A DNA stretch of 64,000 bases, taken from assembly GCF_056712565.1 (NCBI RefSeq), contig NZ_CM160072.1; one strand, 5' to 3'. The notes below the pieces were generated by a model. It worked only from the letters and a program-made list of their open reading frames with translations, had not been told where the DNA came from and did not search any database. Positions 3,298 through 52,837 of the stretch are shown one piece after another. The translations under genes and the position numbers were made by a program. Every line of letters starts with the position of its first letter. The stretch's first letter is position 1.

Positions 3298-6201
<2,904 letters not shown>

Positions 6202-49883: not shown

Positions 49884-52430
49884 TTGTACCTCTATATTGA
49901 GACTCTGAAACAGAGACTGGATGCCATAAATCAATTGCGTGTGGATCGCGCGCTTGCTGCTATGGGGCCTGCATTCCAACAGGTCTACAGTCTACTGCCG
50001 ACATTGTTGCACTATCACCATCCGCTAATGCCGGGTTACCTTGATGGTAACGTTCCCAAAGGCATTTGCCTTTACACGCCTGATGAAACTCAACGCCACT
50101 ACCTGAACGAGCTTGAACTGTATCGTGGAATGTCAGTACAGGACCCACCGAAAGGTGAGCTTCCAATTACTGGTGTATACACCATGGGCAGCACCTCGTC
50201 CGTAGGGCAAAGTTGTTCCTCTGACCTGGATATCTGGGTCTGTCATCAATCCTGGCTCGATAGCGAAGAGCGCCAGTTGCTACAACGTAAATGTAGTCTG
50301 CTGGAAAGCTGGGCCGCCTCGCTGGGTGTGGAAGTCAGCTTCTTCCTGATTGATGAAAACCGCTTCCGTCATAATGAAAGCGGCAGCCTGGGGGGCGAAG
50401 ATTGTGGCTCCACCCAGCATATACTGCTGCTTGACGAATTTTATCGTACCGCCGTGCGTCTCGCCGGTAAGCGTATTCTGTGGAATATGGTGCCGTGCGA
50501 CGAAGAAGAGCATTACGACGACTATGTGATGACGCTTTACGCGCAGGGCGTGTTGACGCCAAATGAATGGCTGGATCTTGGTGGCTTAAGCTCGCTTTCT
50601 GCTGAAGAGTACTTTGGTGCCAGCCTTTGGCAGCTCTACAAGAGTATCGATTCCCCATACAAAGCGGTGCTGAAAACACTGCTGCTGGAAGCCTATTCCT
50701 GGGAATACCCGAACCCACGTCTGCTGGCGAAAGATATCAAACAGCGTTTGCACGACGGCGAAATAGTGTCGTTTGGTCTCGACCCGTATTGCATGATGCT
50801 GGAGCGCGTCACTGAATATCTGACGGCGATCGAAGATTTTACTCGTCTGGATTTAGTTCGCCGATGCTTCTATTTAAAAGTTTGCGAAAAACTCAGCCGT
50901 GAACGCGCCTGCGTAGGCTGGCGTCGTGAAGTGTTAAGCCAGTTGGTGAAAGAGTGGGAATGGGACGATGCTCGTCTGGCGATGCTTGATAATCGCGCTA
51001 ACTGGAAGATTGATCAGGTGCGTGAGGCGCACAACGAGTTGCTCGACGCGATGATGCAGAGCTACCGCAATCTGATCCGCTTTGCGCGTCGCAATAACCT
51101 TAGCGTTTCCGCCAGCCCGCAGGATATCGGTGTTCTGACACGTAAACTGTACGCCGCGTTTGAAGCGTTACCGGGTAAAGTGACGCTGGTAAACCCGCAG
51201 ATTTCACCCGATCTCTCGGAACCGAATCTGACCTTTATTTATGTGCCGCCGGGCCGGGCTAACCGTTCAGGTTGGTATCTGTATAACCGCGCGCCAAATA
51301 TTGAGTCGATCATCAGCCATCAGCCGCTGGAATATAACCGTTACCTGAATAAACTGGTGGCGTGGGCATGGTTTAACGGCCTGCTGACCTCGCGCACCCG
51401 CTTGTATATTAAAGGTAACGGCATTGTCGATTTGCCTAAGTTGCAGGAGATGGTCGCCGACGTGTCGCACCATTTCCCGCTGCGCTTACCTGCACCGACA
51501 CCGAAGGCGCTCTACAGCCCGTGTGAGATCCGCCATCTGGCGATTATCGTTAACCTGGAATATGACCCGACAGCTGCGTTCCGCAATCAGGTGGTGCATT
51601 TTGATTTCCGTAAGCTGGATGTCTTCAGCTTTGGCGAGAATCAAAATTGCCTGGTAGGTAGCGTTGACCTGCTGTATCGCAACTCGTGGAACGAAGTGCG
51701 TACGCTGCACTTCAACGGCGAGCAATCGATGATCGAAGCCCTGAAAACTATTCTCGGCAAAATGCATCAGGACGCCGCGCCGCCAGATAGCGTGGAAGTC
51801 TTCTGTTATAGCCAGCATCTGCGCGGCTTAATCCGTACTCGCGTGCAGCAACTGGTTTCTGAGTGTATTGAACTGCGTCTTTCCAGCACCCGCCAGGAAA
51901 CCGGGCGCTTCAAGGCGCTGCGCGTCTCCGGTCAAACCTGGGGCTTGTTCTTCGAACGGCTGAATGTCTCGGTACAGAAACTGGAAAACGCCATCGAGTT
52001 TTATGGCGCTATTTCGCATAACAAACTGCACGGCCTGTCAGTGCAGGTTGAAACCAATCACGTCAAATTACCGGCGGTGGTGGACGGCTTTGCCAGCGAA
52101 GGGATCATCCAGTTTTTCTTCGAAGAAACGCAAGACGAGAATGGCTTTAATATCTACATTCTCGACGAAAGCAACCGGGTTGAGGTGTATCACCACTGCG
52201 AAGGCAGCAAAGAGGAACTGGTGCGTGACGTCAGTCGCTTCTACTCGTCTTCGCACGACCGTTTCACCTACGGCTCAAGCTTCATCAACTTCAACCTGCC
52301 GCAGTTCTATCAGATTGTGAAGGTTGATGGTCGTGAACAGGTGATTCCGTTTCGCACCAAATCTATCGGTAACATGCCACCTGCCAATCAGGAGCATGAC
52401 GCGCCGCTGTTGCAGCAGTATTTTTCGTGA
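49884..52430 (+). CDS. cyaA: class I adenylate cyclase
   Basis: 848-aa ORF with TTG initiation codon (ttgtacctctatattgag), [23 protein letters not shown]... Confidence 0.95.
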
Positions 52431-52469
52431 TGAAAGTGCCGGAAAGCGAGGCTTATCCGGCATGCAATC

Positions 52470-52790
52470 TTAGCGGAAACTAACTGTTTCACCCGCCTGC
52501 TGCGTCGCCGCCTGTTCCAGCAAATCCCAGAAGGTTTCACCGCTACGATCGCAAATCCACTCGTCGCCTTTCAGATCAAAATGGTAGCCACCCTGTTTGG
52601 TTGCCAGCCACACCTGGTGCAGTGGTTCCTGGCGGTTGATAATGATTTTGCTGCCGTTCTCAAAGGTAATGGTTAGTACACCGCCGTTGATTTCACAGTC
52701 GATATCGCTGTCGCCATCCCAGTCGTCCAGATGTTCTTCAATGGTCAGCCACAGTTGATCAGCCAGGCGATGAAATTCACTGTCGTTCAT
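52470..52790 (-). CDS. cyaY: frataxin homologue (iron-sulfur cluster assembly)
   Basis: 106-aa [46 protein letters not shown]... Confidence 0.94.
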
Positions 52791-52837
52791 TGTTGTATCC
52801 TGTTTTTAAGTGATGGCGGCAGTATAGCGGCATGGGG

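Follow-up and report, generated by a model that had tools for sequence, protein, structure and literature searches.

Insertion sequences are the classic source of hybrid promoters: the inserted DNA gives an outward-facing −35 hexamer to a resident −10, and a new promoter is made from the two. A promoter may also be embedded in the end of the upstream gene, as is the main rpoS promoter, which lies inside nlpD. For cyaY of Escherichia coli K-12, a 5′ end at −24 has been reported by 454 sequencing with a frequency of 1, and the boxes assigned to it are “tgcaAACTTTGAAgccc” at −35 and “tgccGCTATACTgccg” at −10 (Mendoza-Vargas et al., 2009, PLoS One 4:e7526; PMC2760140, Table S1). This K-12 start is thus one 454 read, obtained with a method that cannot tell primary 5′ ends from processed ones and uses no triphosphate enrichment. 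As a second dataset, the supplements of Kim 2012, SMRT-Cappable-seq, and Cho 2014 were consulted, and they contain no cyaY entry; a literature search on the cyaY promoter or its transcription start returned nothing relevant.

We have analyzed the surroundings of cyaY in a window of 64,000 nucleotides (RefSeq assembly GCF_056712565.1, contig NZ_CM160072.1), of which positions 52400-56100 (3.7 kb) are 100% identical to E. coli ATCC 11775 / DSM 30083 (NZ_CP033092.2). A preliminary description of this DNA had drawn attention to a pair of DKNYY-type genes immediately upstream of cyaY and had suggested that read-through from them could contribute to cyaY expression, or that the cyaY promoter may now lie inside coding sequence. 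We consider it probable that most cyaY transcription comes from a sigma-70 promoter belonging to the gene itself. This promoter lies across the stop codon of the adjacent DKNYY-type gene and would be a hybrid, in which an ancestral −10 is combined with a −35 borne by the DKNYY segment.

Gene order at the cyaY–lptM site

The ORFs and the RefSeq annotation agree on the gene order: cyaA (+), cyaY (−), DKNYY-type gene 1 (−), DKNYY-type pseudogene 2 (−), lptM, also called yifL (+), and dapF. cyaA occupies 49884-52430 on the plus strand (ORF list, RefSeq annotation). The convergent cyaY, at 52470-52790 on the minus strand, encodes a frataxin-like iron donor of 106 amino acids, recognized by its ORF, by the RefSeq annotation, and by a match to Pfam Frataxin_Cyay (E 3.6e-34). 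Gene 1 (52838-54154, minus strand) is intact by ORF, Pfam, and annotation, with 438 amino acids, an N-terminal signal-like segment, and a fold predicted from a structural model to be all-beta. Gene 2 (54151-55620, minus strand) is a pseudogene with one nonsense codon, by RefSeq annotation and sequence comparison. The site is bounded by the divergent lptM at 55809-56012 on the plus strand (ORF, Pfam, RefSeq annotation).

Two structural claims of the preliminary description are borne out. The position of cyaY 47 bp behind a co-directional DKNYY gene is confirmed by the ORF list and by the RefSeq annotation of NZ_CP033092.2, and the 4-bp overlap of the two DKNYY-type genes is the ATGA at 54151-54154 on the minus strand, in the sequence “aaaATGAatgg”. 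The same 47-bp spacing between an ORF and cyaY occurs in E. albertii, Escherichia sp. MOD1-EC7003, and Pseudocitrobacter vendiensis; therefore, it is not a chance feature of the window strain. The arrangement of cyaY next to DKNYY genes is an ordinary one.

The cyaY promoter

A sigma-70 promoter was defined as a pair of hexamers near TTGACA and TATAAT, 16–18 bp apart. On the cyaY strand, the consensus scan gave the candidate TTGAAG-17 bp-TATACT at 52849-52821, in which TTGAAG fits the consensus at 4/6 positions and TATACT at 5/6, with a spacer of 17 bp. The hexamer match alone is within chance and not significant, as 3 promoter-like sites were observed against 5.2 expected in shuffles. The −35 hexamer (52844-52849, minus strand) is also the box assigned in K-12 and belongs to an island of invariant bases; it is read within the codons ACT TTG AAG CCC TGA of gene 1. 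The −10 hexamer (52821-52826, minus strand) is marked, in addition to the scan, by its conservation across species. It is found in the 47-bp gap between cyaY and gene 1 (52791-52837, minus strand; delimited by ORFs and annotation), together with part of the promoter spacer, the start site, and a 24-nt leader. The promoter thus straddles the gene 1 stop codon, with the −35 read in the final sense codons and both the −10 and the start falling in the gap, so that the idea of a cyaY promoter now lying inside coding sequence is right for the −35 and wrong for the −10 and the start.

MG1655, ATCC 8739, and two B2 deletion strains match the window at every base from the −35 through the ATG. On account of this identity, the K-12 start can be carried over to the A at 52814 (minus strand, ±1 nt), 24 nt before the cyaY ATG. 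In K-12, the mapped 5′ end falls exactly 7 nt past TATACT, and the putative start in the window has the same distance. A Shine–Dalgarno sequence, AGGA, can be read at 52798-52801 on the minus strand, 7 nt before the ATG, and the form aGGa/gGGa is conserved across species. We propose that cyaY would be transcribed from this sigma-70 promoter of its own, beginning near 52814 and giving a 24-nt leader with the AGGA as ribosome-binding site.

Positions 52815-52820 of the window, between the −10 and the start, read GCCGCC and are conserved across Enterobacteriaceae. A G+C-rich stretch at this place is typical of promoters turned down by ppGpp/DksA, and by analogy, cyaY might be growth-rate regulated.

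The K-12-type deletion allele

The cyaY–lptM interval of ATCC 8739 and MG1655 (462 bp) aligns to the window as two abutting blocks, one running from cyaY to window position 52914 and the other from 55464 onward. K-12-type genomes lack the 2,549 bp between them (52915-55463). At the deletion junction, the first ~52 codons of gene 2 run directly into the last 77 bp of gene 1, and what is known in K-12 as the “cyaY-yifL intergenic region” is a remnant of the DKNYY pair, which keeps 124 bp upstream of cyaY (47 + 77 bp). Accordingly, within E. coli the contrast drawn in the preliminary description runs the wrong way: the upstream region of cyaY is indeed occupied by a DKNYY gene here, but the K-12 region is itself what a deletion left of the same genes. 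Nor is the cyaY promoter displaced relative to strains without the segment, since the promoter stretch is base-for-base identical in K-12.

The deletion is carried by K-12, ATCC 8739, and many B2 strains, and the same junction is found in phylogroup A/B1-like and B2 strains as well as in representatives of E. whittamii and Escherichia sp. E1V33 (loci L009 and L013, at ~5880-5900). Because the junction is common to other Escherichia species, the deletion allele is either older than E. whittamii and E1V33 or has been exchanged between these species. BLAST end points of 144, 142, 139, and 136 had raised the possibility of several independent deletions, which we rejected: there is one junction, and the shifts reflect mismatches nearby.

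Both alleles persist in E. coli. The 2,549-bp stretch is present in 1,578 of 5,426 complete genomes (~29%) and absent from the rest (~71%). A 150-bp query around the cyaY start was recovered at a coverage of at least 80% in 5,242 of the 5,426 genomes. The 110 bp upstream of cyaY are near-identical in ATCC 11775, MG1655, ATCC 8739, and the B2 deletion strains, with no difference at all over the last 68 bp. The last 77 bp of gene 1 are left in place by the deletion, and for this reason the cyaY promoter is common to nearly all E. coli, whether the DKNYY genes are kept or not. Since a dedicated and conserved promoter is kept, cyaY expression is not expected to differ much between strains with and without the DKNYY pair. 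The consequence of the pair for the biology of cyaY is therefore small, given a promoter this deeply conserved, and cyaY data from K-12 can be transferred to the window strain.

The fusion created by the deletion is in frame. In the B2 strain REF1, the resulting ORF of 77 codons is still open (locus L006, 1568-1831) and consists of a signal-like N-terminus followed by the C-terminal 25 residues. In K-12, the fusion ORF has decayed, and the gene annotated there, yzcX, runs on the opposite strand, antisense over cyaY and the DKNYY remnant (MG1655, locus L004, 851-1336). In the literature, yzcX was found in gene lists only. The K-12 “intergenic region” and yzcX thus overlie the decayed remnant of an accessory gene pair.

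The DKNYY-type genes

Gene 1 resembles the Pfam family DKNYY (PF13644) in its repeated D-K-x-x-L/Y-Y-like motifs and its predicted all-beta fold, and it scores 25.0 bits, exactly at the 25-bit gathering cut-off. Gene 2 and its intact relatives differ in remaining under this cut-off, at 20–23 bits: 21.9 for the fragment in the window, 20.1 for the intact O103 version, and 23.3 for the E. albertii fusion. Searches of NCBIfam and of PDB sequences with the DKNYY-type proteins gave no match and no solved relative. The AlphaFold model has a pLDDT of 70, which is moderate, and is all-beta. Foldseek against the PDB returned only generic beta-propeller matches with TM <0.2, and no function is assigned. 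The term “DKNYY” retrieved a single, unrelated paper, and nothing was found that links DKNYY-type genes to CyaY function.

The upstream paralogue had been listed in the preliminary description as a gene. In the window strain, it is broken by an in-frame TAG at 54807-54805, where O103:H2 12009 has CAG, and PGAP calls a pseudogene with an internal stop. FDAARGOS_1303 carries the 2,549-bp stretch at 100.0% identity, with a slightly lower bit score, and is annotated with two intact genes. The change from CAG to TAG may be specific to the strain or lineage, since this other genome is annotated with both genes intact.

Detectable DKNYY-type homologues form 44 clusters, and all clusters with a source name come from Enterobacteriaceae. 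Every homologue whose context was examined sits at the lptM–cyaY site, including those of Salmonella strains and K. spallanzanii. The content of the site varies. Three to four DKNYY-type genes stand there in tandem in Escherichia sp. MOD1-EC7003 (locus L012, 1116-5953) and in K. spallanzanii (locus L090, 4509-9990, four genes), and some Salmonella enterica strains have a fused version of 670 amino acids together with a gene for 129 amino acids (locus L089, 5001-7381). In many E. coli, e.g., O103:H2 12009 (locus L003, 5105-5659), a third gene lies between gene 2 and lptM and encodes a DUF3304 protein. The likeness of this protein to type VI immunity proteins of the Tli1a family is weak and sub-threshold (E 5e-4; 20 bits, where the cut-off is 110). 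Its gene is accompanied by a duplicate of the region upstream of gene 2 and is absent from the window strain.

The simplest explanation for the fixed location of the DKNYY-type genes is that they are exchanged by way of the conserved flanks. The lptM–cyaY gap would then be a fixed site at which one poorly known gene family, restricted to Enterobacteriaceae, is gained, multiplied, and lost.

Insertion of the segment and probable origin of the −35

One genome per species was scanned with CyaY, which gave 80 Enterobacteriaceae loci. In most species, the cyaY–lptM gap is only ~137–139 bp and holds no DKNYY-type gene; the taxa with such an empty site include Salmonella, Citrobacter, Klebsiella/Raoultella, Kluyvera, Enterobacter, and Kosakonia. 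Of the 80 species, 79 have the hexamer TATACT, which does not vary in the alignment; in 78 of them, it stands 33–37 nt ahead of the cyaY ATG. Directly after it comes the conserved stretch GCCGCCATCAC. At the 17-bp spacing, the species with an empty site mostly have CTGCAA or CTGCGC, as opposed to TTGAAG (6) or TTGATG (3) in genomes with the DKNYY segment or its remnant.

When carriers are compared with empty-site species, homology stops directly upstream of TATACT and, on the lptM side, ~78 bp before the lptM ATG. The break at TATACT is seen in Escherichia, Pseudocitrobacter, Citrobacter FP75, Phytobacter, a Salmonella variant, and the E. coli 23CRST031 variant. Given these two breaks, the segment is an insertion relative to the ancestral state; by comparison with the species whose gap is 137–139 bp, it covers approximately 52827-55730 in the window (~2.9 kb). 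No terminal direct or inverted repeats were found at 52827 or 55730. An insertion-sequence or integron-like origin was rejected, as there are no terminal repeats, no transposase, and no integrase, and the two DKNYY-type genes are the sole ORFs. The segment, found at the lptM–cyaY site in Escherichia, Pseudocitrobacter, and Citrobacter, seems to be transferred through recombination within the conserved sequences on either side of it, cyaY and lptM.

We propose that the DKNYY segment was inserted immediately upstream of the resident −10 and that it would have replaced the ancestral −35 (CTGCAA). The segment’s own −35, joined to the ancestral −10, start region, and leader, would constitute a hybrid promoter. 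The premise that the upstream region of cyaY has been altered here is mistaken for the comparison with K-12, in which the promoter stretch is the same, and has merit for the comparison with other Enterobacteriaceae, relative to which the segment did replace the ancestral −35. We infer that the promoter at 52849-52821 is the main source of cyaY mRNA in the window strain and that the −35 swap affects promoter strength.

The cyaY-proximal 300 bp of E. coli, E. albertii, Escherichia MOD1-EC7003, P. vendiensis, and Citrobacter FP75 were aligned. The sequence GCAAACTTTGA.GC..TGAC forms an invariant island, and the coding sequence just upstream of it is variable and contains indels. In fact, the cyaY-proximal genes that carry the island are otherwise only ~35–60% identical. 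At the protein level, the alignment shows the tail “QTLKP” only in copies adjacent to cyaY; the copies of this type in other positions (locus L012, 2594-3868; locus L005, 3516-4811) stop about ten residues earlier and do not have it. The relation of the hexamer to the reading frame differs between taxa: in Citrobacter FP75, the stop codon of the gene is the TGA within TTGAAG, and in Phytobacter, the −35 is placed after the stop codon. In 17 of the 5,426 E. coli genomes (23CRST031 type; locus L005, 3021-3528), an extra gene of 141 amino acids with no family match adjoins cyaY. The TTGAAG module is replaced in these genomes and homology resumes exactly at TATACT, which amounts to a natural replacement of the −35.

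It is tempting to propose, with due hesitation as we hold it to be somewhat doubtful, that the last ~35 bp of the segment (GCAAACTTTGAAGCCCTGACCCCATGCCGC) act as a portable module, which would swap the weak ancestral CTGCAA for a −35 of the TTGA type and so reset cyaY expression. If true, this would account for the retention of this end in all decay products of the segment, among them the ancient K-12-type deletion that E. whittamii also has. Alternatively, the conserved island at the gene end could reflect the position of recombination crossovers and not selection on the −35.

Other sources of cyaY mRNA

Could the DKNYY genes themselves be the source of cyaY mRNA? If cyaY were the last gene of a three-gene transcript, a promoter upstream of gene 2 (55621-55808) would give a substantial share of its mRNA. 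The shared strand, the 4-bp overlap, and the 47-bp gap are in keeping with such a transcript. In addition, no terminator-like site or stable hairpin precedes cyaY: a search for an intrinsic terminator (a G+C-rich hairpin and a T run) in 52838-52790 found none, and the fold there is no better than that of shuffled sequence (z = +0.46). With no such element to stop it, an RNA polymerase that had transcribed gene 1 to its end would continue into cyaY. The first good hairpin lies past cyaY, in the 39-bp gap between the convergent cyaA and cyaY (52431-52469), with z = −2.5 on the cyaY strand and −4.2 on the cyaA strand. It is likely the shared terminator of cyaA and cyaY and the 3′ end of the transcripts that cover cyaY. 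Of the two features by which the preliminary description would have set read-through aside, a cyaY start inside 52791-52837 is at hand, by the one 454 read from K-12, but a terminator after gene 1 was not found.

Other observations speak against a three-gene transcript. The preliminary description had placed a DKNYY promoter near 55651-55808; promoter prediction over 55600-55830 on both strands gave no site with at least 8/12 consensus matches, so that any promoter there would be weak or non-consensus. The nonsense codon of gene 2 would leave ~650 nt untranslated before gene 1, which should favor Rho-dependent termination, and read-through is thus expected to be less likely in the window strain. 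Finally, cyaY has its own conserved promoter, and the ~71% of E. coli genomes that are without most of the DKNYY pair have kept the same one. We therefore regard a substantial contribution from upstream of gene 2 as unlikely. Read-through into cyaY as such may occur, but it is not needed.

A second alternative accepts the −24 5′ end but takes it to be a product of processing or degradation, with TATACTGCCGCCATCAC conserved not as a −10 but for a different reason, e.g., as the site of a regulator or as a feature of the RNA. It draws on the fact that the end is a single read obtained by a method without enrichment of triphosphate ends. On the other hand, the end lies at the canonical 7 nt past a 5/6 match to the −10, with a −35 at 17 bp, and the element is at a fixed distance from the ATG in 78 of 80 species. 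An RNA feature finds no counterpart either: the site has no Rfam family and no stable fold, and an Rfam scan of 52000-56500 at E <= 1 gave no match. We consider a processed end quite improbable. Least credible of all, and hardly to be entertained, is a working promoter deeper in gene 1, e.g., GTGAAA-16-TATTAT at 52926-52899, for although the minus strand upstream of cyaY has just one consensus match besides this one, its −35 lies past the K-12 deletion junction and is thus lost from K-12-type genomes, the stretch is unconserved in E. albertii, MOD1-EC7003, P. vendiensis, and Citrobacter FP75, and no 5′ end is reported there in the K-12 map (PMC2760140).

Comparison with known promoters

The dedicated promoter at the gene 1 stop codon has its nearest described counterpart in the K-12 cyaY promoter of Mendoza-Vargas et al. 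(2009), with which it shares the −35 (AACTTTGAA), the −10 (GCTATACT), the whole sequence from the −35 to the ATG, and the start at −24. The two differ in their setting: the upstream DNA of K-12, a decayed DKNYY remnant, counts as intergenic, whereas the −35 in the window is inside intact coding sequence.

With rpoS and nlpD, the likeness is that of a gene whose own promoter overlaps a co-directional upstream coding sequence, with no terminator between the two, so that read-through can add to expression. At cyaY, however, the coding sequence takes in the −35 but neither the −10 nor the start, the two genes have no functional relation, and the case is known from sequence.

A natural hybrid promoter made of an ancestral −10 and an acquired −35 is an only mildly new point. 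What the locus offers is a natural series for a −35 swap in a housekeeping promoter, comprising the empty site, the full segment, the deletion allele, and the 17 genomes in which the −35 has been replaced once more. As in the hybrid promoters made by insertion sequences, the DKNYY segment ends beside a resident −10, presents a TTGA-type −35 at 17 bp, and has cost the promoter its resident −35; unlike an insertion sequence, the segment has neither transposase nor integrase and is not bounded by terminal inverted or direct repeats.
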